A program made the translations under genes and the position numbers. This document shows positions 1 through 37,138 of a stretch of 37,138 nucleotides of DNA, one piece after another. A model generated the notes under the pieces. The model was given only the letters and a program-made list of their open reading frames with translations, did not search any database and was not told where the DNA came from. The stretch covers positions 1-37,138 of the forward strand of contig UYFQ01000686.1 of NCBI GenBank assembly GCA_900617105.1, given 5' to 3'. Positions within the stretch are counted from its first letter, which is position 1, and every line of letters starts with the position of its first letter. The stretch comes from Hydrurus foetidus (lineage: Eukaryota).

Positions 1-3000
1 TAACGGTGCCACTATGTTGGAGTGGTTTGGTACGAAACCTCTATGGTGTAATCAAGCTCTTGTAGAGCCATAGACCATCTCCCTACCATCGAGTTAGGAG
101 AGGATTTCATGTACGTCAGATTTTTATGATCTGTATGAATCGTAAATTTGCGATCATGTAATAGTAGATCAAGTTTGGTACAACACAAGTAGATAGCATA
201 AGCTTCTTTCTGGATTGTTGACCAGTTCAACTGCGAGAAGGTGAGTGACTTACTTACAAATGAAATGGGTTTCATCTCATCTCCAACCTTTTGGAACAAT
301 ACACCGCCTACACCATAATCAGATGCGTCGGTGTATAAATGTATTGGTGATACATTGTCAATGAAGTGCATCAGGGGGCATTGAGAAATGGCCTGCCTAA
401 TGTCTTGAAACGCTTTAATGGTTTCAGCATTCCAGGTTACCCTGGAATGTTTATGAGTTTAGACACCGTCATTTTATGTAACGGTGCCACTATGTTGGAG
501 TGGTTTGGTACGAAACCTCTATGGTGTAATCAAGCTCTTGTAGAGCCATAGACCATCTCCCTACCATCGAGTTAGGAGAGGATTTCATGTACGTCAGATT
601 TTTATGATCTGTATGAATCGTAAATTTGCGATCATGTAATAGTAGATCAAGTTTGGTACAACACAAGTAGATAGCATAAGCTTCTTTCTGGATTGTTGAC
701 CAGTTCAACTGCGAGAAGGTGAGTGACTTACTTACAAATGAAATGGGTTTCATCTCATCTCCAACCTTTTGGAACAATACACCGCCTACACCATAATCAG
801 ATGCGTCGGTGTATAAATGTATTGGTGATACATTGTCAATGAAGTGCATCAGGGGCATTGAGAAATGGCCTGCCTAATGTCTTGAAACGCTTTAATGGTT
901 TCAGCATTCCAGGTTACCCTGGAATGTTTATGAGTTTAGACACCGTCATTTTATGTAACGGTGCCACTATGTTGGAGTGGTTTGGTACGAAACCTCTATG
1001 GTGTAATCAAGCTCTTGTAGAGCCATGACCATCTCCCTACCATCGAGTTAGGGGAGGATTTCATGTATGTCAGATTTTTATGATCTGTATGAATCGTAAA
1101 TTTGCGATCATGTAATAGTAGATCAAGTTTGGTACAACACAAGTAGATAGCATAAGCTTCTTTCTGGATTGTTGACCAGTTCAACTGCGAGAAGGTGAGT
1201 GACTTACTTACAAATGAAATGGGTTTCATCTCATCTCCAACCTTTTGGAACAATACACCGCCTACACCATAATCAGATGCGTCGGTGTATAAATGTATTG
1301 GTGATACATTGTCAATGAAGTGCATTAGGGGGCATTGAGAAATGGCCTGCCTAATGTCTTGAAACGCTTTAATGGTTTCAGCATTCCAGGTTACCCTGGA
1401 ATGTTTATGAGTTTAGACACCGTCATTTTATGTAACGGTGCCACTATGTTGGAGTGGTTTGGTACGAAACCTCTATGGTGTAATCAAGCTCTTGTAGAGC
1501 CATAGACCATCTCCCTACCATCGAGTTAGGGGAGGATTTCATGTACGTCAGATTTTTATGATCTGTATGAATCGTAAATTTGCGATCATGTAATAGTAGA
1601 TCAAGTTTGGTACAACACAAGTAGATAGCATAAGCTTCTTTCTGGATTGTTGACCAGTTCAACTGCGAGAAGGTGAGTGACTTACTTACAAATGAAATGG
1701 GTTTCATCTCATCTCCAACCTTTTGGAACAATACACCGCCTACACCATAATCAGATGCGTCGGTGTATAAATGTATTGGTGATACATTGTCAATGAAGTG
1801 CATCAGGGGGCATTGAGAAATGGCCTGCCTAATGTCTTGAAACGCTTTAATGGTTTCAGCATTCCAGGTTACTCTGGAATGTTTATGAGTTGTAGACACC
1901 GTCATTTTATGTAACGGTGCCACTATGTTGGAGTGGTTTGGTACGAAACCTCTATGGTGTAATCAAGCTCTTGTAGAGCCATAGACCATCTCCCTACCAT
2001 CGAGTTAGGGGAGGATTTCATGTATGTCAGATTTTTATGATCTGTATGAATCGTAAATTTGCGATCATGTAATAGTAGATCAAGTTTGGTACAACACAAG
2101 TAGATAGCATAAGCTTCTTTCTGGATTGTTGACCAGTTCAACTGCGAGAAGGTGAGTGACTTACTTACAAATGAAATGGGTTTCATCTCATCTCCAACCT
2201 TTTGGAACAATACACCGCCTACACCATAATCAGATGCGTCGGTGTATAAATGTATTGGTGATACATTGTCAATGAAGTGCATCAGGGGGCATTGAGAAAT
2301 GGCCTGCCTAATGTCTTGAAACGCTTTAATGGTTTCAGCATTCCAAGTTACCCTGGAATGTTTATGAGTTTAGACACCGTCATTTTATGTAACGGTGCCA
2401 CTATGTTGGAGTGGTTTGGTACGAAACCTCTATGGTGTAATTAAGCTCTTGTAGAGCCATAGACCATCTCCCTACCATCGAGTTAGGAGAGGATTTCATG
2501 TATGTCAGATTTTTATGATCTGTATGAATCGTAAATTTGCGATCATGTAATAGTAGATCAAGTTTGGTACAACACAAGTAGATAGCATAAGCTTCTTTCT
2601 GGATTGTTGACCAGTTCAACTGCGAGAAGGTGAGTGACTTACTTACAAATGAAATGGGTTTCATCTCATCTCCAACCTTTTGGAACAATACACCGCCTAC
2701 ACCATAATCAGATGCGTCGGTGTATAAATGTATTGGTGATACATTGTCAATGAAGTGCATCAGGGGGCATTGAGAAATGGCCTGCCTAATGTCTTGAAAC
2801 GCTTTAATGGTTTCAGCATTCCAAGTTACCCTGGAATGTTTATGAGTTTAGACACCGTCATTTTATGTAACGGTGCCACTATGTTGGAGTGGTTTGGTAC
2901 GAAACCTCTATGGTGTAATCAAGCTCTTGTAGAGCCATAGACCATCTCCCTACCATCGAGTTAGGAGAGGATTTCATGTACGTCAGATTTTTATGATCTG

Positions 3001-3867
3001 TATGAATCGTAAATTTGCGATCATGTAATAGTAGATCAAGTTTGGTACAACACAAGTAGATAGCATAAGCTTCTTTCTGGATTGTTGACCAGTTCAACTG
3101 CGAGAAGGTGAGTGACTTACTTACAAATGAAATGGGTTTCATCTCATCTCCAACCTTTTGGAACAATACACCGCCTACACCATAATCAGATGCGTCGGTG
3201 TATAAATGTATTGGTGATACATTGTCAATGAAGTGCATCAGGGGGCATTGAGAAATGGCCTGCCTAATGTCTTGAAACGCTTTAATGGTTTCAGCATTCC
3301 AAGTTACCCTGGAATGTTTATGAGTTTAGACACCGTCATTTTATGTAACGGTGCCACTATGTTGGAGTGGTTTGGTACGAAACCTCTATGGTGTAATCAA
3401 GCTCTTGTAGAGCCATAGACCATCTCCCTACCATCGAGTTAGGAGAGGATTTCATGTACGTCAGATTTTTATGATCTGTATGAATCGTAAATTTGCGATC
3501 ACGTAATAGTAGATCAAGTTTGGTACAACACAAGTAGATAGCATAAGCTTCTTTCTGGATTGTTGACCAGTTCAACTGTGAGAAGGTGAGTGACTTACTC
3601 ACAAATGAAATGGGTTTCATCTCATCTCCAACCTTTTGGAACAATACACCGCCTACACCATAATCAGATGCGTCGGTGTATAAATGTATTGGTGATACAT
3701 TGTCAATGAAGTGCATCAGGGGGCATTGAGAAATGGCCTGCCTAATGTCTTGAAACGCTTTAATGGTTTCAGCATTCCAGGTTACCCTGGAATGTTTATG
3801 AGTTGTAGACACCGTCATTTTATGTAACGGTGCCACTATGTTGGAGTGGTTTGGTACGAAACCTCTA
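1..3867 (-). repeat. Tandem array (8 full copies plus a 43-bp partial; continues off the left edge) of a 477-479 bp gypsy RT-connection/RNase H segment
   Basis: TAACGGTGCCACTATG recurs at 1, 479, 956, 1433, 1912, 2390, 2868, 3346 and 3825. Each unit encodes LYTDASDYGVGG...IQKEAYAI...HTDHKNL. Identity ends at 3867, where unique pol sequence resumes. Confidence 0.97.
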
Positions 3868-6032
3868 AAATAGTTCGCCAAACCGAGAAATCCCCTAAGG
3901 GCAGTAACGGTTTTAGGGCGAGGAAAATCTAAAACAGATTTTATTTTCTCAGCCGACATAGATAACCCCTCTTTGGAGATCACACGTCCGACGTATTCGA
4001 GGCGTGTAACTCCGAACTTACATTTCTTAGCTTTCAAGAATAAATTCTTTTCTCGAAAACGGATGAAGACATCACGAAGTCTCTGCAGAAACTCGTCAGG
4101 CCCATTACCAAATACAATGCAATCATCGAGATACATCTCACATGTTACATATAAAAGGCCCGCAAGGACAACCGTGGCCATCATCTCCTGGAAGTATGAT
4201 GGGGCACGTTTGAGGCCGAAAGGCAATCGAGTGAATTGATAAATTCCAGAGAAGCATATGAATGCAGTCAGGATTTTGGCTGATGCCGTAAGGGGTGCTT
4301 GATGGTAGCCGGACGTTAAGTCCATAACCCCAAAGATGTCAGGTTGACGAGCGCCAATGCGTTCAAACATTGCTGGAATGTTGGGGAGTGGCCAACTGGC
4401 CGACTCCGTACAGTTATTAAGTGGCCGGAAGTCAATACATACACGGTATTGTCCGGGTGACTTCTGTACTACTACAGGGTGACTGTAGTATACCGCATTA
4501 GACTTCTCAACCACCCCGATCCGTATCAGATCCTGAAGGTTATTGTGAATCGCCTCCTCCTTCTGTGAGGATTGGGGGCGGAGCGGGGTCCTGTTACCAG
4601 GTACTTCCCATTGTGCCGCCTTATGATCAATATCAAAAGGAGGTATTCGGGCCGGTTCACGGGCCACCTCATCTTGAAAGATGTCAATAAATTCGGTACA
4701 TAATGCTCTGCATGCTGTTTGCAGAGCTTCCGACCCACCAAAGGTGATTGTCGAGATGACATCGTTCGCCCTACCTGTTGGGGTAGGGTCTTTCATCAAT
4801 GCAGAAAGAAACGGACCGAATGCATCTGTTTTGTCATCATCAATCTCATCTCCATTGAGATTGATTCCGCACGGCAACACGCTCGCGGCGTTAAGTGTTA
4901 CTGTGTTCACTCTCGTCCCGGTCTCAGAAGGGGGGCGGTTAAGACCACTGCCCGTCCATAGCGCAGATGGACCCCACTCTTCTCCCACTGTTGGAATACG
5001 GTGGGTGCTCGAGTGACCTTCGTCTCCATTGTCAGCAGTGTCGGTAATTAGGCGACACTGTGTACAAGGACTACGCGATCCGACAGCGTCACTATGATGA
5101 CAACAGACGTCGGTATGTGAATCTGTACCGATGTCGGACTCTGCCCTTAAGGGAAGTAGACCGATGTCATCCGGGCTATGTGACGTTTCGACTAACGTAG
5201 GGTCAAAGCCCATACGTGTCGGTGTCAGCACAAACAAGTTGTGTTGATTCAGGGACTTGCGTCCGATGATCAGATCCAGTTGTGCAAAAGGATTAACACT
5301 AAAAGTGATATAGATAGTGTGCTTAATATTACTATCATCGAGAAAAGTAAGGCCTAAATCGACTAAGGTATTACACCTATAACAAGTGCCATCGAGCCCG
5401 CTACAAACGTTAAGTGCGGTTGAAGACACATAACAATGAGCAAGTGCATCGAGTGAGACAAGCAGTGATTTGGAAACAAAATCGCCGGCCATGCTACCCG
5501 TGTCTAGGAGCGCGTGCGCTGTAAGACTAAGTCCCGTGGACTGGGGTGCTGACGCGACTGTGGTGGGGGCGTGTCCCTGCAAGGTTCTTCGTTCATCCTT
5601 GAACACCAATAATGAGAGAAGTTCATTAGGATTCGTTGAATGTACCGCTGCTACAAGTGAGTCAGACGGTAACGTACCTGTGAGCGGTATTTCCGACATG
5701 TCGGGTTGGTTATGACATGCCGCCAGCACCTCCGAGATTAGCGGCAGGGAGGTATGGTGTGGCTGTAACACGTGAAGACATGTGGGGAGAACATCGTTAA
5801 TGTTATCCGAGATATTATTGGAGGGGGTTGAGACCTCTAATGCATCAGTTATGAGTATATCAGAGTTGAGTATACATAAAGATGGTGGTGTATCGGTAGG
5901 GCTACATGTGTTAGCCGCATGTATCGCCACTACTAATGCATTCACCACCGTGGTATGAGTTAACGTACCATCGCATGGGGCTGGGAGTGGTAGGCCACTG
6001 TTGGCTGCGTTGATGGAGGTGTTGTTGGCCAA
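3357..6032 (-). CDS. pol: G1 pol: aspartic protease, reverse transcriptase and RNase H; truncated by the tandem-duplication junction
   Basis: LLDTGS...DLIIGR (protease); RVCIDFRPLN, DLTSGYHQ, LPFGLKRAP, YLDD (RT); TDAS, KEAYAI, TDHKNL (RNase H). Confidence 0.95.
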   Translation of the reverse strand: MANNTSINAANSGLPLPAPCDGTLTHTTVVNALVVAIHAANTCSPTDTPPSLCILNSDILITDALEVSTPSNNISDNINDVLPTCLHVLQPHHTSLPLISEVLAACHNQPDMSEIPLTGTLPSDSLVAAVHSTNPNELLSLLVFKDERRTLQGHAPTTVASAPQSTGLSLTAHALLDTGSMAGDFVSKSLLVSLDALAHCYVSSTALNVCSGLDGTCYRCNTLVDLGLTFLDDSNIKHTIYITFSVNPFAQLDLIIGRKSLNQHNLFVLTPTRMGFDPTLVETSHSPDDIGLLPLRAESDIGTDSHTDVCCHHSDAVGSRSPCTQCRLITDTADNGDEGHSSTHRIPTVGEEWGPSALWTGSGLNRPPSETGTRVNTVTLNAASVLPCGINLNGDEIDDDKTDAFGPFLSALMKDPTPTGRANDVISTITFGGSEALQTACRALCTEFIDIFQDEVAREPARIPPFDIDHKAAQWEVPGNRTPLRPQSSQKEEAIHNNLQDLIRIGVVEKSNAVYYSHPVVVQKSPGQYRVCIDFRPLNNCTESASWPLPNIPAMFERIGARQPDIFGVMDLTSGYHQAPLTASAKILTAFICFSGIYQFTRLPFGLKRAPSYFQEMMATVVLAGLLYVTCEMYLDDCIVFGNGPDEFLQRLRDVFIRFREKNLFLKAKKCKFGVTRLEYVGRVISKEGLSMSAEKIKSVLDFPRPKTVTALRGFLGLANYFRGFVPNHSNIVAPLHKMTVSTTHKHSRVTWNAETIKAFQDIRQAISQCPLMHFIDNVSPIHLYTDASDYGVGGVLFQKVGDEMKPISFVSKSLTFSQLNWSTIQKEAYAIYLCCTKLDLLLRDRKFTIHTDHKNLTYMKSSPNSMVGRWSMALQELDYTIEVSYQTTPT

Positions 6033-6781
6033 CGTGGTGTTTTGTCCACCCGAACCGTATCGCGGTTTGTTGGTGGGACCTCGATTATAGTTCCCCCCAT
6101 GATTGGGGTTTCCTTGGTATTTTTTCTTATGACCACCTCCTGGGGGTGGGCTTTATTCAGTACCTCATCAGTGAAGTTTGTTTCACGACGGGGTATCTGA
6201 ATTTTGAAGCGGCCCAGACCAGGGATGCGGTCGTGGAGAGGATAGGTCGCATGACCGTACTGTGCCCACGTGCGACCCATGTTGGAGTGGTCCCACGGGA
6301 CATTGTGGTTGGTGTTCGAGTCCACCATCCACATGTGTGGGCAACTCTTAAGCAGGTGGTCCCTGTGTCCACAAGAGTTACACTGTGGGAATGGTGTTGT
6401 TGGCAGTTCCAGCGGTGGTAATGCTGGGAGTGCCGCACCAACCAACAGGGTTTTGGGGTTTGTGGTGAGAGATAACCCATACGGATTTTGTCTCGCGGGG
6501 TGACAGTAAATGTCGTTGGGGTCCCCGAAAGCCGCTACGTGTAGCTGGAGCTGTCGTACCGCATTGACTTGGGAGAAAAAGCGACGCATCGCGAATTCCC
6601 AATCGTCCACGTCATGCGGGTTGACGCGCTTATGCTCTTTGTACTTGGCGGTGATAGCACCGTTAAGAGGCATCTTTTTCTCTAAAATAAGAGTAAGTGC
6701 GGCATGGTCGGAAGCGCTGAGTGTGCCATGTACTTGTACATGATTCTCAACCACCTCACGAAACTGCGTCATGCAGCGCAT
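5960..6781 (-). CDS. gag: G1 gag C-terminal part with CCHC zinc knuckle
   Basis: CNSCGHRDHLLKSC matches C-X2-C-X4-H-X4-C; lies immediately upstream of pol in another frame. Confidence 0.8.
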   Translation of the reverse strand: MRCMTQFREVVENHVQVHGTLSASDHAALTLILEKKMPLNGAITAKYKEHKRVNPHDVDDWEFAMRRFFSQVNAVRQLQLHVAAFGDPNDIYCHPARQNPYGLSLTTNPKTLLVGAALPALPPLELPTTPFPQCNSCGHRDHLLKSCPHMWMVDSNTNHNVPWDHSNMGRTWAQYGHATYPLHDRIPGLGRFKIQIPRRETNFTDEVLNKAHPQEVVIRKNTKETPIMGGTIIEVPPTNRDTVRVDKTPRWPTTPPSTQPTVAYHSQPHAMVR

Positions 6782-9096
6782 CTCAATCTCCCTTTTGTTG
6801 TAACAAAAGGCGAGATGTACTTCGGAGAAATGCTCCGCCAGTGACTGCCCAAGTTGCGTGTCCGCGCGAAAGTAGCGCAGGACTCAATGCGCAACTTGAG
6901 GGACCGTCAAAGTTTGGAGCCACACTTTACATGTCTCCTCGGAGTATGGATAATCTTGATCCGTATGGATCTGATCATCAATGCATCTGACTGCTTTAGT
7001 CGAGATGACTTGACCAACATCATAGTTGTTGGTCCATCTCTGGGAGTGCTCATAAAACTTCCGCGCTGCATCCTGTCTGATAATGCCGGACGCATTCACG
7101 TTGAGAACGTAAAGTACCGTTTGCAATGCAATAGCGGATATAGGTCGGGAACCATCATCCACAGCACGTCCACCCACTACAAGCGCTGTAGGGGTCGCAC
7201 TGGGTGTGGCAAACTGTACCGCGGGTACGTTGATCGGTGACGTACGATCATGTATGTACCGTGGTATCGGCGGTCGTACTGGTTGCGCTGCATTGGGGTC
7301 GAGACCGCCCCCTGCAGCTCGGAACGCTGCTGTTTGCAGCTCGTAATCGATGATGCGATCCGTTGCGGGTAGCACCACGATGTCTGGAGGATCCAGGGGA
7401 AGTGGGTTAGGAACCCGAATTTCCCGTGGGATCTCCTGGATGACTCGTTGGGGTTGGGGGTTATAATCGGTGTCACCAGTAAACGTACGTACGTACGTAG
7501 GACGTTCCGGTGACCCTGGTGGAGAAGCTTGTCGCTTGCGTGACGTTGGACCCTCTTGCGGGGGTAACGCGCGTTTGCGAGGAGCATCCGCTGTGCGGGT
7601 TACTGTCCCCACATCTTCGGGGATGCGCGTATCGCGACTCTCGAGCAATCTAGAGTTGTCGGTCACGCGTATGGACGCACGTGGAGTCGTACGACTCTCA
7701 GTCGCACGTTCGTCCTCATATTGATTTTCGTTGTACTGACGACTGTCAGTATTACGATTGCCTCTGTTCGAGGTATCATGTTGGCGACGATCGTCCCCTT
7801 GGTGATAGTCCCTGGGGGGACTGTCGTCGTAACCCTGTGGGGTTTCTCGACGACTTCTCCTGTTGGGGTTGTTATCTCCCTGACGGAAGTTGTCGTTGTT
7901 GTCGTCGCGAAAATTATCGAAATTGCGAGTATTCGTCGAATAATTCCCCTGTTTGGGTTGTCATTACGACGAGAATCCTCGTAATTACGATTATCCCTTT
8001 GGGGGTTATCGTTGAGACGTTGGAAGGTGTCTCTACGGTTATCCCTATTAGGGTTGTCGTCTTGTTGACGATTATCGTTATCGCGACGCCCGTCATTCTG
8101 ACGTGGGTTGTCGTCGTTGCGACGATTGTCGCTGTTGCGTCGATCGTCATATTGACGTCTGTTATCGTCATTGAATTGGGTGTTGTACCCGCGACGCCCT
8201 TCGTTGTCGTACTCGTGACTGTCGTCATTCTGACGGTAATTGTCGTTATAACGACGATTATCGTTCTGACGTTGATTGTCATTGCGGCGATCATCGTTAT
8301 ATTGACGTCCATCGTTATCGTAACGGTTGTCGTTACGGTGCTCCGTACCGTATGAAGGGCCCGTATTACGGTTGTCCCTGGGAGGGTTGGAGTCATCGTA
8401 GTTACGACGATTGTCGTTGTGACTTTGATTGTCATCATTAAAACGTCGATAATCGTTGTTGTTTCGATTATCGTCATTGTATTGGCGTTGGTTAGAATCG
8501 TTGCGTTGACGGTTATCGTAACGATTATCGTCACCACCGTCTTCGCTACCACTCTGTTGATTCGGAGTGGGCGGATAGTCGCCCGTTGCATCTCCGTCGA
8601 TGGGGTTATTCCGACGAGTTGAGTTGTCGTAACTGTCGAGGCCCTGACGACGGAGGTATCGTTGCGGGGGTGAATCTATACGGCGGCGAGGGTTAGTATC
8701 GCCGTCGTCATCATCCCGGTCAGGGTCGCTGTTATGGCGTGTCTGTTGACGGTTTGCGTCTGACGAACGCAACGTGACATTGTCATGTTGTCGCGTTGTG
8801 TGAACGTCGTCGTCGTCGTCGTTATGACGATTAGGCGGCGCCTGATTGGAACTGTTGGTAGGTCCCAGTATTGTTACTGGGAATACCGGTCGATCAGTTC
8901 CATCAGACGCAGCTACTGCTGTCGGCGCTGTTGGTGTCGACTGAGTTTTTGAAACTGTCGTCGCTGCCGGAACTAATTGAGTAGTTAATTCGGCGAGCGA
9001 CGGCGATATCTCCGAAGAGTCATCGGATAACGGCATCGTTAGATGACTTATGTCTTGACAATTTTCAATAGCGAGAGTCGCCAAAAACATTTGCAA
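6782..9096 (-). pseudogene. G1 gag N-terminal region, frameshifted into pieces (ORFs 7663..9096 and 6884..7666), with a long Asn/Asp/Arg-rich low-complexity tract
   Basis: Consecutive minus-strand ORFs between the leader and the zinc-knuckle ORF; repeats such as DNRRNDD and NRRYNDN at about 7930-8600. Confidence 0.65.
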
Positions 9097-9235
9097 GGGC
9101 TTCGCCTCGTGCCGTTTGGATGAAAATCAAACAGTCGATTAGGCAAAACAAAATAAGTCAAGTGTGTTCTGGGCGGATGAATTAATCAATCCGTACAAAA
9201 TGAGCCGGGATTGGGAGACTTGCTCGACCAACCAC

Positions 9236-9770
9236 GAGAACGGCGTGGAAGACAAAGCTATCCACGGACGTCAATCAAGCCACGCTTGAAGCGAAATATG
9301 AGCAGAAGTTAACTGGGTCAACTCTGCACAATGGTATGGGATTGCCGAGATGAAACTCGAGCAACCACAAGACAGTCAAGTATCGGGAGATAAATCTCAA
9401 TCCGAGTGACTAAGAGAACGGCGTGGAAGACAAAGCTATCCACGGACGTCAATCAAGCAGAGCTTGAAGTGAGAGATGGGCAGAAGTTAACTGGGTTAAC
9501 TCTGCACAATGGTATGGGATTGCCGAGATGAAACTCGAGCAACCACAAGATAGTCAAGTATCGGGAGATAAATCTCAATCCGAGTGACTAAGAGAACGGC
9601 GTGGAAGACAAAGCTATCCACGGACGTCAAACAAGCAGAGCTTGGAGTGAGAAATGGGCAGAAGTTAACTGGGTTAACTCTGCACAATGGTATGGGATTG
9701 CCGAGATGAAACTCGAGCAACCACAAGATAGTCAAGTATCGGGAGATAAATCTCAATTCGAGTGACTAAG
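9236..9770. repeat. Three 178-bp tandem repeats in the G1 5' leader
   Basis: GAGAACGGCGTGGAAGACAAAGC starts at 9236, 9414 and 9592, with few substitutions between copies. Confidence 0.95.
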
Positions 9771-9941
9771 TTTACAGCAATCAGACTTCGGAGACTTGCT
9801 TGCGATAGTAAGAATTGCCCGTAAACGAGAATTTCGAATAAAATTCTCGCAGGGTAATAGGGAGAGTTAGGGCAGCAGGTTAGCGTAGAAGAGGGTAGCT
9901 TAGAGTAGGAGGATAGGGTCTAAAGAAGATAAACTAAAGGA

Positions 9942-9953
9942 AGTAGATCTACT
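9942..9953 (-). other. Perfect 12-bp palindrome at the G1 PBS position
   Basis: AGTAGATCTACT is self-complementary and includes the terminal A of the candidate LTR; no TGG-type PBS is present. Confidence 0.7.
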
Positions 9954-10159
9954 GTGACCTTTGAGGGCTAGGAAGAAGGGAAGTCTAAAGGCTAAAAGAA
10001 GCTGATTAGTTAGGGAGAAAGCAGAAGGTACGCTAGTAACTTCTGCAAAGCAGCACAAACTAGCTAGTGACTGATAGTCGTGGCTGTGAACACGAAGGTA
10101 CTAAGGTGGAAACAGCATCTAATCGGCTGAATGGGGTAGCAGACCCTGAGGGAGCCACA
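9953..10159 (-). repeat. Candidate 5' LTR of G1 (207 bp)
   Basis: On the minus strand it reads TGTGGC...GGTCACA (TGTG/CACA inverted termini), upstream of leader and gag. The second LTR is not in the window, so the bounds are unconfirmed. Confidence 0.6.
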
Positions 10160-10291: not shown

Positions 10292-11897
10292 TTACGCCAT
10301 GTAACTACGGTATGACTCTGGAATAGGATATACAATTACTGGTAAATAGACTGGTTTCGCCATCGATCCTTTGGCAATTCTAGCTAGGTCAGTTACATAA
10401 TCATCAAAAATCATACGAATAGTCTCAACAAATGATGTCATTATAGGGTGTGAAGTTGGGAAGGAATCGTTCATTTTGCGGTTAAATCTTTCTAATGAAT
10501 TATTTTTTCTATTGATTAATGTAAATTCAGGATTTTCAGTAACAAAAGAATGCACATTCCACACTCTGGGATTGTATCTCACCATCCATGTGCTGATGAA
10601 ATAGCTCCAGAAAGAATTGAATTGGACCTGGTGTGAGGATTCATGAAATCCACAGCGGCAATATGGAATGCCTTTCGACAGAAAATCTTCGATGGGTATC
10701 ACTGTCAGAATATTCATCACTCTATCAGTCCCTATCAACATGCGGATGAGGTGTTTAGGAATATGAAAATCTACCGACTTTCTTTTGATCGCCTGCTTCC
10801 AGTGAAACAGGCACCCCACTGCCACTCCGGCGGGAAACTCAGCCTTCATGGATGACATAATCCCATGCTCGAAATCCGATGTGTACGTTGTCGCCTGCAT
10901 CTTCCCCTCACTCGACGAAGTGCACGCTTGCAACGCATGCCTGTAGGTCAATTCCTTTTTTTTCTGTAGTAGCATGTAATATACGGGCACGTACATTCCT
11001 GTACATACAAAATTTTAGGGGTGTTTTGCAATAATTAAAAAGAATCGTGTAAACATTATATGAAAATAATAAATGCATACAAAGAATACAACGTACAATA
11101 CGTCGTACCTACAGACCTGTTGCAGCCGTGTAAATCATTATGATGAAAAGCTGTTTGAATCCCTTTGGGACACAAGAGAACATACAGTCAACGAACATAG
11201 GGCACGCACTGTACTTCATCAGATGTATCAAATCAGGATGCCCCCATCCAATGATCATTTCAATTTCAGTAGCGGTTGTATAGTTGAGGAAGAATTTGAG
11301 GAATGACCTTACATCAGTAATGGAACATGACCGCATCGAACGCGCATGGATTTTTGATATCCAATCACCGAATTCCCTCGTCCTCACTTGGTATACATAC
11401 GCCAGTAGCTGCGGATGTAGTTATTTTTAACGACCGATAAGAAATAGAAATCCGCGTTATTCATTTGCATTGAAATACCTTAATATTTTTTTAGGGTGCA
11501 GTCAAATACGTGCTATGCAACATCGGTGGCGCTTTTCGTGGCGTCATCAATGTAGCTGTCGAGAATCATTTGCTTCGTGATTCTTTCAACTTCCACTTCT
11601 TTCGTTGTGCCCTTCTGAGAACAAGTATGGGCAATATTTCTTTCGACGATTGCTCCATGACACGTGGACTTTATTGAAACTTTACAAAAATGTGGTGCAC
11701 GGTAGCTAGGACGTTGGTAGAAGGCGTGTTCGCCTCTTGAAGCAGTACTCTTTTTTGAGTAACTAAACCCATCGAAGGATATTTTATTCTCAAAATTTAC
11801 CAGCGAACTCCGCTTTTTCTTCTCAGGAGTCGCCAGAAACGAGAAGTCGAGAGAGAGCTCATCCTCGACATTTTAGTCATCCACATCGCTGAACATT
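10292..11897 (-). pseudogene. Mutator/MULE DDE transposase, decayed, with a probable intron 10999..11116
   Basis: FVDCMFSCVP..FKQLFII, SDFEHG, GCLFHWKQAI (CxxH) and NNSLERFN are MULE motifs. A GT..AG intron joins ...ATG|MYVPV in frame. The upstream part has stops. Confidence 0.8.
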
Positions 11898-12240: not shown

Positions 12241-13641
12241 ACCGAAGGTCGATATATTTAGAACCGTACATGTACGTACAACTATTTTGATGGATCTCTA
12301 CAGGCGGGGCTCCAAATCGACGATAAGAATTCATACTCGAAAGGTGGCTTCATCACGACCACTTCTTACAAATTTTCGACGTTGTTGGATATCCTAGGTA
12401 ACTCTAGCAGCCTCTAAAGCTAGCATTCCGATTGTTGTGCATTTCTAAAACTAGAAAAATTGAAGATAGCAATTTCCTGTAATCTGTGTCTCTGAAAATT
12501 CGATTTTGCGTAGAATGCCTCTCAGGAAGCGTCGTCTACAGGACATAGCAGTGCCCAAAACGAGCAACGAGCATTAAGTACTTGCTCATCAGGTATGATT
12601 CTCGAGTTTCATCGCTGCAACCTCATCAATTCTTTATCTCATGATCGAAATATGACCATTTTACGATGCATCCTCTGAAAAATCACTCTACAAGTACTCT
12701 CAAGAAACTGATAGAGCCCTCCGGAACAAAATTTGACCTGCAAAACCACTCTAAAATGTGTTCATTACTGTAGGTGCAGAACATGGATGCTAGCCGAGCT
12801 GTAATGCTCCTTCCAGCTGTGGGGAGCAGAGGGTTCATCAGGTAAGGTATTCCTGGACACACTTGATTTTGAATTCACTCCAGCTCTGATTTCGTTTCTG
12901 AAAATTGATCTGATCTTCAAATATAACTGACAATCCAGGATCGAAATCGTGGAGCAATTGGAGCTGCATCTGAAAAGTCAGTTTCGGAGAGCAGAGGCAC
13001 TGCTGTAGACGCAAAATGTTAGATAGCATATTCTGTATGTAAATACGCTGGCATATTAACACTCCAGCGATATTTGAATTCATTAATTCTATTCATGCTT
13101 TGAATTATTTAAAGATAAGAAAAGGAGTGGCAGCCCAGGCACTTCAGCTTTCACGAAATATATCCTCTGGGGAGTGTTCTGCGGGTTCAGTTGCAGTTAT
13201 GATTTGTTGCAAAACATAGTCATGAGTAGTCTGAGAGTAGCAGTTATTTCTAAAATGAAGCGGAAGGGCTACTCAGGAAAGAATTCTCAGGAGATTCCTC
13301 GTCAAAACTATCTATTCAGTACAGAACAAATCATACTGTATAACTACATCGCAAAGCCTACGGCAGTAACGGTCGGTTCTTTATGCACAGCATACACCGT
13401 TATAGATTATCAAAAATTTACCGAACGAACGCACGTTGTATTTCACATCATTGACTTATTCCATCTCGCAAGAAACAAGAGTTGATGTGTGAGGGCCGTA
13501 AAATTTTAGACCGGAACTCTTAGAAACGGATGTAAGTCGAAAGTTCACGATAAGAGTTGAGTTCATGACGCATCGTGAAACTCAGACACATCATTTGCGC
13601 AACAACAGATCAAAGTATAAAGGATTCTCAACATTGACAGC

Positions 13642-15207
13642 ATGGACGATGCAAGGGATAGAAACCTTGAGAATCATGATCCCGAAGAGGCAGCAGCAAA
13701 TGTTGGGCTGAGGAAACGAGTGATCAGCATGATCTGTGGAATTATTATCGTTATGAACTTGTTCATGATCAGTCAGAAACGGGAACCAATTCTACCGGAA
13801 TTCCTGACTCCGTTCATCAACGACCTTGCTGGGACAGTGAATTGTGACGACACTGATTGTGATGATGCAGTGTTTGCAGCAGCTGCAAAATTTCAGCAGA
13901 ATCTCTAGAATCGAATCATTGCAATTGACCTCTTTTGTATCGATCCTACTCGTAAGTCAGAGCAGTTATTTTGGGATACTTATCGCGGCCGCGAGTCCGA
14001 CTGGTACAAAGAGTATCGAATGTCGCATTCAACGTTTAATGGCATAGTGAGGGATTGCGTTCCACTTCTTTATTCCCGTCCAACTTATTCGTTGAAGTCT
14101 GCTAAATTCCGATACATCAGGAGCAAAGTAGTCATAGCTACTCTGGTTCGTTATCTGGCAGTGCAAAGCGACCAACATACTCTAGGAAAAGAATTTGGAG
14201 TTTGACAACCATGCGTCAGCTAAAGACTTGAACGAGCTTGTCAAGCGCTCCTCTCAGCATACTGGTTTCAGGGCTGTCCAAATCCCAAAATTGCATTTCC
14301 GTTAGAAGAGGGTCGCTGAGCTTCTGCGCGATGGTATCTTTCCAAATGTCAGATTTCATTCCTCTGCGGGTCCATCGATGGGAGTATCATTAAAATCTCT
14401 GCGCCACACTCTGATGCATATATTCCAAGAGAGTTCTCGTGCAAAAGGAAGCACTCATACTCGCTGAATTTGATGATTATCTGCGACCATAGAAAGCGTT
14501 TTATTTTTGCAGATTCTCGATGGCCTGGGTCAACATCAGATACTGGGGCGGTATCTCGATCAAGTTTTTTGACGAATCTGTTTGTGCGTAGGGATGCCAC
14601 CTTATTCCCCTATCCTTTTATGATACTGTCAGATGGTTCCACAAACGATCTTGCTTTACAGCTCCTGATTACCACGCAAGAAACAGATTAGAAAATTTGT
14701 TCAACAGGAATATCAGCCGTGCTCGGTGTGTCGTAGAGAATGCTTTTGGTCTACTCAAAATGAAGTGGAGGCGTCTGCATCAACACTCGATTGCAGAGAG
14801 CACACGATTGATTCCGCAGTTGGTTCTTTGCGCATGTATTTTGCACAATATTTGCATATATGCTGGCGATGTGAACGAAGTAGAAGATGGAGCTGTGCGA
14901 GATGTAGACGAAGCAGCTGCGGACAGAGTTGAAATCAATGCTGCATGTGGAAGAGTACTTCGTAATAACGGTAGGATTAAGTGCCTGATCTTCAAATTAT
15001 TTACTAAATTAATTTGCACATGCACATCATGCAGGTGTGCCATTCGCCCATAACGCTGCCAACCTTGTACAGGAATATCGCACAAAATTGGGAAGAATGT
15101 ATGATATGTGGGTTGATTTACGAGAGGGTGTTGTTGTTACACTAGAAGAGCTGAAAGTAATTTATGGACCTGCTGCTTACGCATACGATGATGAAGTTGA
15201 AATTTGA
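13642..15207 (+). pseudogene. Harbinger (HARBI1/DDE_Tnp_4-like) transposase with stops and frameshifts; probable intron 14971..15034
   Basis: GSIDG, YSLNLMIICDH, WPGSTSD, ILSDG and SRARCVVENAFGLLKMKWRRL. Splicing GT(14971)..AG(15034) extends the frame to TGA at 15205-15207. Confidence 0.88.
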
Positions 15208-15214
15208 TAATCAT

Positions 15215-16495
15215 TCAGATTTTTTTTAGCACACTAGAAAGAATGTTCGAAAAAGTATTCTGTACATTAATGCTATCCTGGCGCGCTTCTGCAAGTCTCG
15301 TCTGTTCCGCGTGATACCTTTGCTGTTCAATAGCATCTTTTTTTTCTCTATACTCGACGTCACGTACGTCCTTCTCTTCGCGTCGCTCGATATCTTGTAG
15401 CCTGCTCTCCTTGTGATACTCGAAGTTTGACTTACTGAAATTCATATTTTCCTCATGATGCTGTACAGCAGTCCTTGTTAAGTCGATGATTAGTGACGCC
15501 TTGCTGACCTTCTTTGCTGCACCATCTCCCCCCTCGGCAGAATTTTGTTGCACATCAGATTCTCGGAAACCGTCCATTTGACAAAATTCTCTTTTGCTAC
15601 CAGCACCGCTCGTTAGATCACTCTCAGACATGAGGCCAACTCCAGAAACTGACTGAGGAAATGTGTCCATGAAGTGCTTGATGATCTTTATACACTCCTC
15701 ATCAACGCCATCGGCATATCTAAGGTCGCGTTTGCCATCTCTGACTACGACAGCGGCTGATTCTGCTACCATGCGAGGATCATCGAGCCCGTTTTCATCG
15801 CTGCTGCCGCCTGTCGGTCCTTCTATATCTGGCAGCTCATCCTCTCTACCATCAACCTGTGCGGCCTTATAGTCGCTTACCTTCCTGCACATTGCTATCC
15901 ACTTCGACTGGTAAGGCGATGATGCGAGGAGGTTGTTAGGAGTCGCACGAACACGGCCGAACTTTTTCCCCATCAAATCCGGGATGTGAACTAACCACAG
16001 CTTACTAATAGGGATCAACTTTTTGCTCTGGGATAGCTTCGCACCATCATCCCAGGCTTTGTACGACGTAATCAAATCCAATAGCTCCGTTGTTGACCAC
16101 ATCGATCGAGCAGCTAGAAGTGGATAAGTGTGCTCGCCAATTTTTATGATCGCTCCGGAAGCAGTAGTTGTATCTTCAGCAGATTTTGATGTCTTTGTTT
16201 TCGGAATCGTAATTGACTTGACATCCAAAATAACACTTTTGCTCGAAGATTCGGATGCTTTCGCAGCCTTGTCAGACTGTATCTGGGCGTTGGTCCTGCG
16301 TATTTTTTTCTTTGACGGTGTCGGAGTCAAGAATGAAATCTCGACATTCGATGATGAGCTGATCTGGCTCGCTTCAAAATTCTGAGATTGGTCTTCATCA
16401 GTTCTCGATGACTTTCTACTGCTTCCAGTCTCAAATCTAAAACATGTTGAGCTGTCGACGGAACTCTCATCATCTTCTGACTGGTTGGCAGACAT
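15215..16495 (-). CDS. Harbinger ORF2, putative Myb/SANT-like DNA-binding protein (426 aa from the first ATG)
   Basis: Uninterrupted ORF with WSTTELLDLI...W...KW tryptophan spacing, a charged coiled-coil C-terminus and KKKIRR NLS-like motif; tail-to-tail with the transposase, 7 bp between stops. Confidence 0.72.
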   Translation of the reverse strand: MSANQSEDDESSVDSSTCFRFETGSSRKSSRTDEDQSQNFEASQISSSSNVEISFLTPTPSKKKIRRTNAQIQSDKAAKASESSSKSVILDVKSITIPKTKTSKSAEDTTTASGAIIKIGEHTYPLLAARSMWSTTELLDLITSYKAWDDGAKLSQSKKLIPISKLWLVHIPDLMGKKFGRVRATPNNLLASSPYQSKWIAMCRKVSDYKAAQVDGREDELPDIEGPTGGSSDENGLDDPRMVAESAAVVVRDGKRDLRYADGVDEECIKIIKHFMDTFPQSVSGVGLMSESDLTSGAGSKREFCQMDGFRESDVQQNSAEGGDGAAKKVSKASLIIDLTRTAVQHHEENMNFSKSNFEYHKESRLQDIERREEKDVRDVEYREKKDAIEQQRYHAEQTRLAEARQDSINVQNTFSNILSSVLKKI

Positions 16496-16734
16496 TTGGA
16501 CGACACCTCCGCAAATTATTTGGGTGATGACGCAGCTTGAAATGTGAGTACTGCGATCAAATGATGTTTTACGAGGCAGTCTGTCCAACTCTTATTTTTA
16601 TCCTCGAATCCTTGCTTCTAAACTTTAGAAACAAGAGTTGGGAGAAGAGTACGTAAAAATCCTGTAAAAAGAGTGGGGAACGCTTTTATCCACTTTTTTA
16701 CGGTCACAACTCTTGTTTCTTGCGAGATAGAAAA

Positions 16735-17326: not shown

Positions 17327-17329
17327 TAA

Positions 17330-17590
17330 GTGCATTCCTTGTGGGAGTGCAAAAACAAAGTACAAAATTGGAGTTTTTGTTGACTTTGTCTCGCTCTATC
17401 GTACCTTTGTGGTGACCAAAACAAAAAATAAAAATCCATTTTTTTGTTTTTCAACTTTGTCAGGTCCTTCCGAGACAAAAAAGACGTGAAAATTTGTCTG
17501 GCAAATCGTCGAGACAAAGTTGCGCCAAATATCACCAAAAAAAAAACCCAAGTTTTGTATTTTGTGCTTCGTCTCCCACAAGGAATGGCC
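17330..17590. mobile_element. Tourist-like (PIF/Harbinger) MITE, 261 bp
   Basis: TIRs GTGCATTCCTTGTGGGAG / CTCCCACAAGGAATGGCC (16/18); TAA on both sides (17327-29, 17591-93). Confidence 0.85.
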
Positions 17591-19568: not shown

Positions 19569-19649
19569 CTTCGAACCCGCACGTGCTTCCATCCAGAAAC
19601 AGCTCTGCAGCTTGAGGCCTAAGCGCTCTACCAAGTGAGCTTCCCAGGA
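19569..19649 (-). other. tRNA-like sequence (pol III A and B boxes); SINE head or tRNA pseudogene
   Basis: Minus strand TCCTGGGAAGCTCACTTGGTAGAGCG (D-arm GCTC/GAGC, A box) ... GCGGGTTCGAAG (B box); the 3' T-stem and acceptor stem are missing. Confidence 0.6.
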
Positions 19650-32419: not shown

Positions 32420-32692
32420 TGTAGCCTAGCACGTACGTTCACCGTACGCTTCGTATACGTTTGTATATATTCACGTATGTATATAATTCACGCACCCATA
32501 GTCTATTTTCATCCACATCAACTGTCCACCGGTAACGGACGCTCATCAGCATCAGCACCCTTGTAGCCTATCGTTTGTGTCTGTTGTTAGCTGCTTGCTC
32601 GCTTCTTTCACAAACTGTAACTAACCTAACAGTTTACTCCAGCATACCGTCTTTACCCGGATTCTTCGTACTCGAATCCGGCCGCGACTACA
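32420..32692 (+). repeat. Candidate 5' LTR of gypsy element G2 (273 bp)
   Basis: TGTAGCC...GACTACA termini (same style as the LTR at 21688..21952); TATA-like motifs at about 32464-32486; 100 bp upstream of the gag ATG. Confidence 0.72.
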
Positions 32693-32704
32693 ATATTAAT
32701 ATTG
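32691..32704 (+). other. Perfect palindrome at the G2 PBS position
   Basis: CAATATTAATATTG; the 12-bp core AATATTAATATT starts at the LTR terminal A. No TGG PBS. Confidence 0.72.
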
Positions 32705-32792
32705 AGAGTTGTTAGACGAACTCTCGTTACTGGAGAGCTAGATAGATTTTCAACCGCCGACATCCGACGACCATCTGGCACTGATCACCAGT

Positions 32793-34886
32793 ATGGTTTC
32801 CAGCAACCGACGAAGACTTTCCAGGGTATCGGCCGTTTCGACGGCTCCCCTGTCGATTTCACAGGAAGCGCCATCAACTGACGCTGTCGACGAAATCGTC
32901 GCCAACAGCCAGGACGCTAGCACAACGGGAGATTCCGACTCGGCGAATCCTCCCTCGCTTCCAGATCCATCTGTTGCTGCGACTGATGTCGCAGCCCATC
33001 TATCTATCGCCTCTAACCCCTTCTCGAATTTGGCCCCCGGCGTGGGAGGGGGAAACCCCTTGCAAAATTTTTTGCAGCCATCTTCCGCTCCATCTGGAGC
33101 TTTTACAGCGGATCTAGCGATATCCCAAGCGGGGGAAGTCTCTGTTGAACATCAACAACTTCCCCAGCGAGTGGATGGAGTATTTTTGGAGCCGGCGCCT
33201 TCGCCACCAGCACCATCACCATCATCATCCACGATGATAGCCGCCACCGCCGACATCACCGCCATCACCGCCATCACCGCCATCGCCGCCACCGACATCA
33301 CGCCACTACCTGTCATTGTGCGTGATGTCTTACCTGCTTTGCCTGTGCTGCCTGTGTTATCTGCCGCAGTTTTGCCTGCAAACCCGGTGCAAACCGATTC
33401 CCTGTTGCCCACTTCCGACAGCAATGTCATGAACAGTAATGTTCAGAGTGTGGCAACTTTTGCTACCGTTGGTGGTGTTACTACCGATGTTGTTGTTTCA
33501 AACCTTGCTGCACGCTATCTATTACCTCATGAAAAGGTTAGAAAGCTCAGCAAGGTTCCAACTCATCTGGAAGTTTTAAGCATCACCAACGACCTTCGCA
33601 AGAATGGTTGCCCCTATACGTTTCTTGACGTGGTACCATTAGACGTCGAGCAATCTCTTGTAACACTCCTGCAAAGGCAGTATTGCACTGAGAGAGCAAT
33701 TCGCGACGAGTGCGAAGAGTGGAAGTCATGGACTACCGAGAGATTCTGCAAAGAACTCCTCAAGGCAGTACCTGATGAGTCCATCGATACACCTTTGGGT
33801 CAGGCATCGTTCCTCGAGCAAGTCTCATCGTTCAATTTCAGATTTGATTTGAACAACATTGAGACTGACTCCTGTAACGATACTGCCCTTGGTGCATTGG
33901 TAGCAAATTTCCCCAGCACTACTGCTGAGGAACAGCTTAAGGCTGTTAAGATTCTAGAGCGTCAGTTGCCTACCCACCCCGTCAATTGGCAGCTCATCTT
34001 ACGCCGCAAGGTGAACGGTGAGACTGTTCCAATCAACGATTTGAAAGATTTTCGATTCGTTTGGTGGACGCAACTGACTACTCTCAGAAACTCAGCTAAC
34101 GAGCTTCGGGCTGCTGGTTATGAGGTTACTCCAGGCCCAGCTACGCGTTCTAAAGATAAGCCTATCTCCAAACGCGCTGCTGAGCCTGATGAGGACACCA
34201 TCAAACCACGTGCTAAGTCCGCGAAGACTGCAAAGTCTTCGAATCCCTCAACCACTCGCACCGTACAGGTCTGTGTTGGTTGTGGAAGATCTAATCACAC
34301 TATCTCTGTGTGTAGATTTACTGCATCACCCTACTTCAATTCTTCTGACAGTGCATATGCTGATAGCAATGCATTTAAGAAACTGAAAAAGGATTACCCT
34401 GATGCATTGGTTGCAAGAGGAGCGTACGTGCCTACCACCTCCTCTTCTTCCTCTTCTTCTACTGCTACCGCGTCAGCCTCGGCTGTACCGGAGGGTCCGT
34501 CTAAGCCGGTCACTAAGCAAAAGAGCTTAAAGAAGACAAGTAAGTTATCATCAACTATTAGTTTCACTGATGTTGTTATTCCTTCTTCCATATTGGGAGC
34601 TCTTACGAACCTTTCGTCAGCCGACTTTCTAACTGCTACTGTCACCTATGTGTCACAGCCCAGCCAGCCAAGAAATGAAGTCCAAGTGCTGATCGATACG
34701 GGATCGCTCGCCGGCAATTTTGTTGCCATGCGTGTAATTAAGAATTTTCATTTAGAAGAATTTATTATTTTCGACAAGACACTGACTGTTTGTTCAGCCT
34801 TAGATGGAAAATGTTATAACATTTCTAAGTCTATAAATTTGAAAATGACTTACTTTTCTGAACGTTTAAATAAAAATACTTTTTAA
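32793..34886 (+). CDS. gag: G2 gag fused to the protease N-terminal half
   Basis: CVGCGRSNHTISVC zinc knuckle; LIDTGS. The frame breaks at a T-run (34880-84) and the protease continues in the -1 frame (DVVIGR). Confidence 0.9.
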   Translation: MVSSNRRRLSRVSAVSTAPLSISQEAPSTDAVDEIVANSQDASTTGDSDSANPPSLPDPSVAATDVAAHLSIASNPFSNLAPGVGGGNPLQNFLQPSSAPSGAFTADLAISQAGEVSVEHQQLPQRVDGVFLEPAPSPPAPSPSSSTMIAATADITAITAITAIAATDITPLPVIVRDVLPALPVLPVLSAAVLPANPVQTDSLLPTSDSNVMNSNVQSVATFATVGGVTTDVVVSNLAARYLLPHEKVRKLSKVPTHLEVLSITNDLRKNGCPYTFLDVVPLDVEQSLVTLLQRQYCTERAIRDECEEWKSWTTERFCKELLKAVPDESIDTPLGQASFLEQVSSFNFRFDLNNIETDSCNDTALGALVANFPSTTAEEQLKAVKILERQLPTHPVNWQLILRRKVNGETVPINDLKDFRFVWWTQLTTLRNSANELRAAGYEVTPGPATRSKDKPISKRAAEPDEDTIKPRAKSAKTAKSSNPSTTRTVQVCVGCGRSNHTISVCRFTASPYFNSSDSAYADSNAFKKLKKDYPDALVARGAYVPTTSSSSSSSTATASASAVPEGPSKPVTKQKSLKKTSKLSSTISFTDVVIPSSILGALTNLSSADFLTATVTYVSQPSQPRNEVQVLIDTGSLAGNFVAMRVIKNFHLEEFIIFDKTLTVCSALDGKCYNISKSINLKMTYFSERLNKNTF

Positions 34887-35349
34887 ATTTCAAAGCAATT
34901 ATTTTAAACAAGTCTTCAGTCGATGTTGTGATCGGACGAGTGACAATTCGGGAATCACAAATATTCCTCGAGTTGCCTAGTCAATTAGCATCGACTAATA
35001 TAGTGCACAGGGCAGCGACCTCAGTAACACCCCAAAGGGTTATTGTATCAGGTCTACTAGCTTCTCTCGTCATTCAATCCGAGAATACATCTCAACTGGC
35101 TATGCCAGATGATGATGAAATCGGTGAACATGAGGCTAGTACCTTTTCACCTTGGTTACCGGATACCAATCCGGAACCGGTTGACCCAGTATCCCTGATT
35201 AACATATCGGGTACTCCTGAACTTCAGGAGTTGATTAGACTACTCTGTATTGAATACAGAGATATCTTTTCAAATACACTTTCATCTCAGCCTGCTTCTA
35301 TTCCTCCTTTTGATCTGGTTGTTCAGGACCCTAAGTGGCGTGTCTCTAA
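34880..35349 (+). pseudogene. G2 protease C-terminus and linker, bounded by two homopolymer frameshifts
   Basis: DVVIGR...LCIEYRDIF...PASIPPFDL aligns with G1 LCTEFIDIF...PARIPPFDI. Confidence 0.8.
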
Positions 35350-37138
35350 AATAGACAACCACCTAGACCTCAATCAGCAGCCAATCAGAAGGAGATTACT
35401 AGACAATTAAATATCCTCATTGAGCAGGGTATTATTGAGAAATCCACGGCGGCTTATTATAGCCAAGGATTTTTAGTAACTAAGGCTGACGGATCTAAAA
35501 GATTCGTTATAGATTACCGTAACTTGAACGAATGTACGGAACATGCCTCTTGGCCCGTACCGAACATAACGGAAATGTTACAGAGAATCGGTTCTCAGAA
35601 ACCGACGATCTTTGGCACGGTGGATTTTGCTCAAGCATACCATCAAGCCGCATTAACACTCGCTACTAAAAAATATACTTCGTTTATATTATATAGTGGT
35701 GTCTATCAGTTTACTAGACTACCTTTTGGTCTAAAGCAAGCACCTTCTTATTTTCAAGAGATGATTGCTACTGAAGTGTTAAATACGTTACTTTATAGAA
35801 TTTTAGAAATTTATATCGATGACGTTAACATTTTTGGAAACAGTCCTGACAACTTTGTTGCACGACTGCGAGAATTCTTTTCTCGCGTTCGTCTCCATAA
35901 AATGATCCTTAAACCATCCAAATGTTATCTTGGCTATGCCGATTTAAAATTTGTTGGTAAGGTTATATCACAAGAGGGACTTAGAATGTCCCAGAGTAAA
36001 ATCCAATTAGTTTTGGATTTTCCTTGTCCTACTGTATCCAAACAACTTAAAAGTTTTCTTGGATTGGTAAACTATTTCCGTGATTTCATCAGAAATCAGT
36101 CTACGATAGTAAGACCGTTACATGCGTTACTTACAAATTATCAAAGAACAAAACGGATAGTATGGACACCAGAAGCAACTTCTGCTTTTAATGAAATAAA
36201 GGAACAAGTATCGAAATGTACTACCATTCATTTCATTAGTGATACTGCACCAATCACGTTGCACACTGATGCATCTGATTATGGTATCGGTGGTTACCTC
36301 TTCCAGACTATTGATGGAAAGGACTATCCGGTTGCATTTGTAAGCAAATCTCTTTCTGGGTCTCAACTTCGTTGGTCCACTATTCAAAAGGAAGCTTATG
36401 CAATTTACTATTCTTGTATTTTTCTACAATCACTTTTACGTGATAGATTATTTACAATTCGAACGGATCATAGAAATCTGTTATACATATATAACAATTC
36501 TAATCCAATGATTGTTCGGTGGTATGTAGCACTCTCAGAGTATACATATAAAATTGAATTTATTAAAGGTGTTGATAATGATATCGCCGACTCTATGTCT
36601 CGACTATGTCGTAACAATATGATCGACTCACCTAAGGAATACTCTGCAGATATGATTCTTGCAGCAGCTATTATTCCGAAAATTCAACTCACCGATATGC
36701 AATACAATGCTATATCATCAGTTCACAATTCTATGGTTGGTCATTTTGGACTAGCCAGAACTATGAAACGATTGAAAGCAAATCAACATAAGTGGGAATT
36801 CATGGAAAATCATGTTAGATATTTCATTGACTTTTGCCCACAATGTCAAAAGATGAGTATGATTAAAATACCTATTCATGCTCATCCTTTTACGACTTCG
36901 TCGTATTACCCTATGGAATGTTTAAACATCGACTTTGTCGGTCCATTTCCTGACGGAGGACATATCCTCGTTATCATTGATACATTCACTCGTTGGACTG
37001 AATTGTATCATACTACTGATTCAACTGCACTATCCGCCGCCCAATGTCTAATACAACATTTTGGTCGTTTCGGAGCACCTCATCAGTTAAGATCAGATAA
37101 CGGTCCCCACTTTATTGCTGACGTAATGCGTGAGTTTA
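35350..37138 (+). CDS. pol: G2 pol: RT, RNase H and integrase (open to the window end; absent from the ORF track)
   Basis: Manual translation, no stops: RFVIDYRNLN, YIDD, TDASDYG, HNSMVGH...CPQC (HHCC), IDFVGP, RSDNG. Confidence 0.95.

Follow-up and report, generated by a model that had tools for sequence, protein, structure and literature searches.

In the gypsy lineage to which two elements of the analysed DNA belong, the tRNA primer site behind the 5' long terminal repeat (LTR) is replaced by a palindrome that begins on the last A of the LTR. This replacement is confirmed as real, occurs throughout the lineage and shows covariation between the paired positions. Based on the sequences and on calculated folding energies, the palindrome may pair with the same site in a co-packaged RNA, which would be cut at the end of the duplex and would then act as primer. 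A probability of roughly one half is assigned to this reading. That the site serves as its own primer in one way or another, be it in trans or in cis, appears probable.

The window, i.e. the whole stretch of 37,138 nucleotides that was analysed, is repeat-rich eukaryotic DNA. Its two gypsy elements, G1 on the minus strand and G2 on the plus strand, comprise the following features:

9942..9953, minus strand: G1 primer-site palindrome, 12 nt, consisting of the terminal A of the 5' LTR (9953) and 11 nt
9953..10159, minus strand: G1 5' LTR, 207 bp, TGT...ACA; an independent copy (L067) spans exactly the same, and contigs of public runs have loose ends at both borders
9231..9770, minus strand: tandem repeats in the G1 leader, 3 x 178 bp, repeat family D11
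5960..9126, minus strand: G1 gag-region frames in the pieces 7663-9126, 6884-7960 and 5960-6883, role assigned by position
3357..6152, minus strand: G1 pol with protease-like motif, reverse transcriptase and RNase H, stopping before the last RNase H aspartate
1..3867, minus strand: tandem array of 8 copies of a 478-bp G1 RNase H piece, replacing the 3' part of the element
32420..32692, plus strand: G2 5' LTR, its end shown by a second copy (L068) and its start placed by inverted termini
32692..32703, plus strand: G2 palindrome, 12 nt, consisting of the terminal A and 11 nt, with an extra pair 32691/32704
32742..37137, plus strand: G2 gag-pol with reverse transcriptase, RNase H and integrase, running off the window

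Both elements belong to Ty3/gypsy (Metaviridae), as seen from their TG...CA LTRs and from the domain order reverse transcriptase (RT), RNase H, integrase in G2, G1 being cut after RNase H. They share 53% identity over RT-RNase H, and all four acidic motifs of RNase H are retained in G2. The integrase C-termini of G1 and G2 lie outside the window; P0001, a protein with 98% identity to G2, carries a chromodomain (PF00385), as do most of the homologues of full length. The copy of G1 in the window is defective, and neither an integrase nor a 3' LTR belonging to it was found within the window. The copies of the 478-bp array are 98-100% alike and reach the window start, and would represent either a satellite derived from pol or an error of the assembly. 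None of the G1 gag-region frames has a Pfam match, including the first (7663-9126, minus strand), which contains a long Asp/Asn/Arg-rich repeat region. The G1 leader is about 900 nt long, and its 178-bp tandem repeats are also present in contigs of the family.

The LTR border of G1 and G2

The sequence AGTAGATCTACT at 9942-9953 is a perfect palindrome of 12 nt, as had been claimed in an earlier, sequence-only reading of this DNA. The chance of one such 12-mer in a fixed register is 2.6e-4. Because perfect palindromes of at least 12 nt are numerous in the window (22 compared with about 9.5 expected), the case for G1 rests on its register. The end of the LTR is located where that reading had placed it. 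In L067, a second and independent LTR copy aligns with the window from 10159 to 9953 (207 bp, 93%) and has unrelated DNA on either side, with no matching target-site duplication around it. In contigs assembled from public runs, the summed depth falls about 500-fold beyond 10159, and the loose ends at this position read as a polypurine tract in three of four runs. At the other border, loose ends of low agreement (0.44-0.63) with varied flanks occur just before 9953 in all four runs (2, 8, 5 and 2 contigs). Contigs of the family list no variant of at least 1% in 9938-9961, while the adjoining positions 9928-9937 and 9962-9973 do vary. The absence of both a TGG after the LTR and a complement within the LTR was also borne out for G1, the longest complement found being 5 nt.

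The LTR end of G2 is fixed at 32692, where L068 departs after ...GACTACA. The terminal A is followed by ATATTAATATT, with which it forms a palindrome that has one additional outer pair. Thus, in G1 and G2 alike, the palindrome begins on the last A of the LTR. The sequence-only reading had put both palindromes in the same register with the centre between +5 and +6 as the invariant. The shared register stands insofar as both start on the terminal A, while the fixed centre had to be given up: the palindromes of relatives measure 10, 12, 14, 16, 18 or 20 nt and all start on the terminal A. The invariant is this start, and with it the outer pair, rather than the centre.

Palindromes and covariation in related elements

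An alignment of 44 RT-RNase H sequences used as query yielded 145 loci (2 in viral contigs, 64 in genome contigs and 79 in metagenome contigs), many of which do not extend as far as the LTR end. The G1 protein alone gave no match in viral contigs. Sixty-four gypsy RT loci (L003-L066) lie inside prokaryotic metagenome-assembled genomes and represent eukaryotic repeat contigs that were binned as bacteria or archaea.

LTR starts were called by a polypurine tract plus TGT and hence blind to palindromes. Elements entered the test set if 330 nt or more followed the called start. The resulting 60 comprise sisters as well as three outgroup elements and a number of 3' LTRs. A perfect palindrome of at least 12 nt on the A of a CA, located at +60 to +470, was found in 40 of these 60 elements compared with 0.84 in dinucleotide shuffles (maximum 4 in 100), an enrichment of about 50-fold; at 10 nt, the respective values were 46 and 3.1. 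At least two of the 40 positives (L053 and L142) are palindromes internal to the LTR. Fourteen elements had no 10-mer on a CA. In L002, L111 and L117 the LTR ends in TA and a perfect 12-mer is present, and L084, L093, L101 and L108 have a single mismatch at the outer pair, i.e. the terminal-A pair is missing. The LTR start was miscalled in L038 and L054, which do possess the palindrome, L034 is a 3' LTR with its flank, and L060 and L061 are outgroups, which leaves L107 and L140 unexplained. Sister families do carry palindromes at the same register, whose absence would have counted against the sequence-only reading, and these palindromes covary.

The four elements in which the terminal-A pair is lost (L093:6524, L101:1124, L108:3956 and L084:4268) all retain an inner 10-mer that is perfect. 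L093, L101 and L108 have an LTR with TA at its end, and the sequences that border their palindrome on the left and on the right are complementary over 4 nt. As natural variants, these elements would be useful in mapping the predicted cut.

A caller of LTR ends that used 7-nt inverted termini alone was too noisy: of its 32 unique calls, no more than 11 had a palindrome. The claim thus rests on the blind enrichment test and on 3'-LTR copies. In nine families (G1, G2, L028, L080, L081, L112, L135, L138 and the L141 group) a second copy of the U5 end meets unrelated DNA at the A in question, the LTR end of L138 being ambiguous by 3 nt. Opposite-strand matches to second copies of L072, L079, L105 and L120 were set aside as chance. 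A curated table of 77 ends, chosen on palindromes and thus no estimate of their frequency, contains 73 perfect ones: 50 of 12 nt, nine of 10 nt, five of 14 nt, seven of 16 nt and one each of 18 and 20 nt. Removal of 11 near-duplicates from the table left 66 non-redundant sites.

Among these 66 sites are 33 different palindromes of 10-20 nt. In the 42 12-mers the outer positions read A-R-T-A, each Watson-Crick type is found at both central pairs, and the central tetramers number 12 out of a possible 16. Blind sites that have the outer four pairs of a 12-mer form both inner pairs in 39 cases, one in 8 and none in 20, chance for both being about 1/16. In a quick tree of 88 rows with SH-aLRT support, built from these elements with no named references (Tf1, sushi, Tcn1, GyDi), those bearing a palindrome form a single group of 80 rows (SH-aLRT 99), which L057 joins by a long branch. 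Seven distant elements stand apart from this group, among them L053, which has a TGG site. Compensatory changes, often of the central pair, separate sisters on the tree (L141/L144, L139/L145, L072/L074 and L088/L089). Two related LTR ends on one contig, L120:509 and L120:6857, likewise have palindromes that differ by a compensatory change of the central pair.

Opposite the terminal A, 49 of 66 blind sites have the T needed for a pair, and the next pair further out forms at the level of chance (15 of 63). As pairing stops sharply past the terminal A, the helix ends where DNA synthesis must start. Two-fold symmetry would also suit a double-stranded DNA site bound by a dimeric protein, and a palindrome might arise as a mutational by-product. 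These readings are very unlikely, since a protein site should keep its letters, which here make up 33 sequences in six lengths, and the enrichment over shuffles speaks against both.

Candidate primers

None of the known modes of priming appears to account for the site. Among the 66 sites there is no TGG after the LTR and none that fits the geometry of an anticodon arm as used by Ty5, copia, Osser and Bianca, while a relaxed anticodon-loop pattern fits eight sites other than those of G1 and G2. A comparison with 52 surrogate tRNA calls, mostly bacterial and not those of the host, gave matches no longer than in shuffles (6.6 compared with 7.0 nt), so that the lack of a tRNA-type site asserted by the sequence-only reading agrees with these data. 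Alternatively, a fragment of a host tRNA, such as an anticodon-arm half of the kind used by Ty5, Drosophila copia and fungal Copia/Helenus, could bind the site and the palindrome would be incidental. The centre of the G1 site presumably resembles the anticodon region of tRNA-Tyr over about 7 nt. Anticodon-loop priming by tRNA-Tyr, -Ile, -Asp and -iMet is described for fungal Copia (PMC10886601), but the accessible text of PMC6317226 reports priming by half-tRNAs in copia lineages only. In addition, near-identical sisters differ by paired changes and could therefore not be served by one tRNA, which makes a tRNA fragment highly improbable here.

Chromodomain gypsies include the self-primers Tf1, sushi and Tcn1 (PMC6317226), and the transcript 5' end could in principle prime in the ordinary Tf1 manner. 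However, complements of the site within the LTR are at the level of shuffles (mean longest 5.6 compared with 5.4 nt), with one of 52 elements reaching the 10 nt used as criterion for such self-primers in PMC6317226 and with 5 nt in both G1 and G2. For the lineage this mode is extremely improbable, and for G1 it is refuted as long as the transcript begins within the LTR. The palindrome core occurs only once in 72 of 73 loci over the stretch that each contig covers, and a second arm 12-41 nt downstream (at most one mismatch), as known from the fungal GalEa elements, was found in none of the 66 sites with about 2 expected from shuffles. In the 60 nt of leader downstream, a complement with at most two mismatches occurs in 4 of 66 sites compared with about 12.6 in shuffles, which suggests that pairing between leader and palindrome is avoided.

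As the 33 sequences change between sisters, no single host RNA can be the primer. Nothing else within the element is complementary to the site, which therefore likely serves as its own primer. The 3' end of a primer sets the U5 border, the plus strand copies the primer, and second-strand transfer needs this copy to match the site (PMC7175516). In Tf1, RNase H cuts an RNA duplex and thereby releases a primer of 11 nt (PMC7175516). By analogy, two RNAs of the G1/G2 lineage would form an antiparallel duplex of 10-20 bp with its outer pair on the last base of the LTR, and the RNase H of the element would cut one strand at the duplex end or one base before it, in a Tf1-like manner. Minus-strand DNA would then start from the new 3'-OH, at the U5 border of the partner RNA that stayed intact. 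Plus-strand DNA would copy the retained primer, and second-strand transfer would both work and rebuild the site because primer and site share one sequence. A point mutation would lead to a heteroduplex with the mirror change on the opposite strand. Since repair of this heteroduplex can fix both mutated positions, the rebuilding step would explain the fast compensatory change.

The palindrome might instead act in cis: the RNA would be cut just 3' of it, and the end would fold back into a hairpin and prime. Such a hairpin would have a stem of 3-4 bp and a loop of 4 nt, perhaps supported by a longer stem between U5 and leader, and its centre would be palindromic only through rebuilding. Folding back would account just as well for palindromes that always start on the terminal A and are perfect up to the centre. 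In fact, a perfect centre separates neither possibility from the other, because a cis primer must also equal the site after copying; covariation of the central pair was for this reason dropped as proof of a dimer, even though that pair cannot form in a hairpin. An interrupted U5-leader stem is weakly enriched (own leader within the best 5% for 10 of 63, mean z -0.49), but the extended stem of G1 is no better than cross-element controls (rank 0.77). Moreover, the sites have only 11% G+C, the 10-mers allow a stem of just 3 bp, and there are no odd-length or loop-bearing forms among the 77 curated sites, a set chosen as palindromes. The median energy of forced hairpins is +2.3 kcal/mol, with values below zero in 2 of 63 cases, the other 61 being unstable, compared with a median of -10.4 kcal/mol for the duplexes; the values for G1 are 0.0 (hairpin) and -16.2 kcal/mol (duplex). 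Priming by fold-back in cis is thus considered unlikely, and a duplex of two RNAs is favoured over the hairpin on predicted energy only. The difference in cofolding energy between dimer and monomer, negative in 63 of 63, was not counted as support, as any palindrome scores as a dimer.

Perhaps the palindrome is merely a signal for dimerisation or packaging, in the style of the retroviral DIS or Ty3 PAL6, and something else is the primer. Dimers driven by palindromes are known in Ty3, Ty1 and HIV-1 (PMC11381356) and the central covariation would fit. Yet such a signal leaves unexplained why palindromes of six lengths all end exactly on the terminal A of the LTR and why another primer site is absent, and a role in dimerisation without priming is accordingly rated as rather unlikely. 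Mutual priming by two RNAs, the preferred reading, has difficulties of its own. One of the two RNAs must escape the cut, as otherwise no template would retain the site, and the model leaves unexplained how this symmetry is broken. The curated sites without a terminal-A pair (L084, L093, L101 and L108) also count against it, as do the blind elements that lack a 10-mer on a CA, the LTR-internal positives, the low yield of the caller based on inverted termini, and the palindromes near the 5' ends of Ty3 RNA, which serve as dimer signals and not in priming (PMC11381356). Taken together, there is good support for the first part of what the sequence-only reading proposed, a self-pairing site in place of the tRNA primer site, whereas the second part, priming by a dimer, is plausible and owes its preference to folding energy.

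Precedents, implications and neighbouring elements

The closest precedent is found in copia rather than gypsy elements. Fungal GalEa Ty1/copia elements contain a Conserved Hairpin Site (Donnart et al. 2017) of 9 nt that is palindromic together with the final A of the LTR (PMC5445492). Its authors suspect a role as primer site and mention DIS, and the accessible text proposes no priming mechanism (PMC5445492). The sequence-only reading had not recognised the dimer-primed mechanism as described; for the feature itself, to speak of something undescribed would be too strong. GalEa resembles the G1/G2 lineage in lacking a tRNA site and a Tf1-type complement and in a palindrome that includes the LTR final A (PMC5445492), although the elements described here are gypsy by domain order and RVT_1. 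The GalEa palindrome measures 10 nt and has two main sequences, compared with 10-20 nt and 33 sequences in this lineage, and it is accompanied 12-41 nt downstream by the second arm (CHSeq2) that is missing here (PMC5445492).

Tf1, Tf2, sushi and Tcn1 share with this lineage the gypsy superfamily, a tRNA-free site of about 11 nt that abuts the LTR and an RNA duplex, here a predicted one, which RNase H could cut (PMC7175516, PMC6317226). Going by the homologues of G2, they probably also have the chromodomain in common with it. The difference lies in the primer, which in Tf1 is described as the first 11 nt of the transcript, complementary to a sequence of the LTR, while here the site complements itself. 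Ty3 PAL6, Ty1 PAL and the retroviral DIS are also short palindromes near the 5' end that pair two genomic RNAs, but they coexist with a tRNA site and are not bound to the LTR border (PMC11381356). The Skipper chromoviruses of dictyostelids are chromodomain gypsies of protists that, like the G1/G2 lineage, have neither TGG nor LTR complement, and a new kind of self-priming has been suspected for them (PMC5006619); according to the same source they differ by a polypyrimidine tract and the absence of a palindrome.

A full-text literature search, with subscription journals and Repbase Reports outside its coverage, returned no paper on palindromic primer sites of gypsy elements or on priming by dimers. 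Repbase entries for gypsies of the diatom Thalassiosira pseudonana, a stramenopile, reportedly list a 12-bp 'self-priming palindrome', a term that would suit fold-back in cis, at the start of the internal region where a tRNA site would be expected. If so, the feature in gypsy elements may already exist in database notes, which would not extend to the covariation and the dimer mechanism. The accessible portions of PMC5006619, PMC6317226, PMC10886601, PMC11381356, PMC7175516, PMC6934838 and PMC2806351 describe no palindromic gypsy primer site, and the main text of PMC2806351, as far as available, does not mention a palindrome in diatom gypsies. A site of this kind would amount to a novel form of priming without tRNA, foreshadowed by the copia elements, and the mechanism that we infer for it is open to direct testing.

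How LTR elements prime when they lack both a tRNA site and a Tf1-type primer is a question raised by the respective authors for GalEa, Skipper and Tcn2-5, and this lineage supplies dozens of natural variants of a palindromic site. Dimer priming predicts that RNAs with complementary, non-palindromic sites would rescue each other. Should it prove true, dimerisation and priming would be one step, the element would be free of its dependence on host tRNA and of silencing by tRNA fragments, and palindromes specific to each family would limit cross-priming between families. Tentatively, and with somewhat more doubt than belief, mutual priming by packaged genomes could be seen as a third start mode for LTR reverse transcription, tRNA-free and with a self-repairing palindrome, that marks a protist gypsy lineage and had a separate origin in fungal copia. 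For annotation, LTR finders that score a match to tRNA would miss such elements or misplace their boundaries.

The remainder of the window contains further mobile elements. A fragment of a MULE transposase (PF10551) at 10292-11014 lies directly upstream of the insertion point of G1, and several nested pairs of inverted repeats at 13459-21587 are likely non-autonomous DNA transposons. An RPB3 exon is also present, for which the sole named eukaryote among the best 120 matches is a protein of Ochromonadaceae (55%), a weak pointer to a chrysophyte-like stramenopile as the probable host. A copia element at 22935-28533 on the minus strand is apparently intact; its LTRs of about 311 bp are 99% identical, and its target-site duplication reads TATAT. 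TGG is absent, and the 9 nt past the LTR complement positions 8-16 (D arm) of a surrogate tRNA-Gly, which may hint at a short 5' tRNA fragment as primer or could be due to chance. Adjoining the 3' end of this element is a perfect palindrome of 30 nt at 22833-22862.
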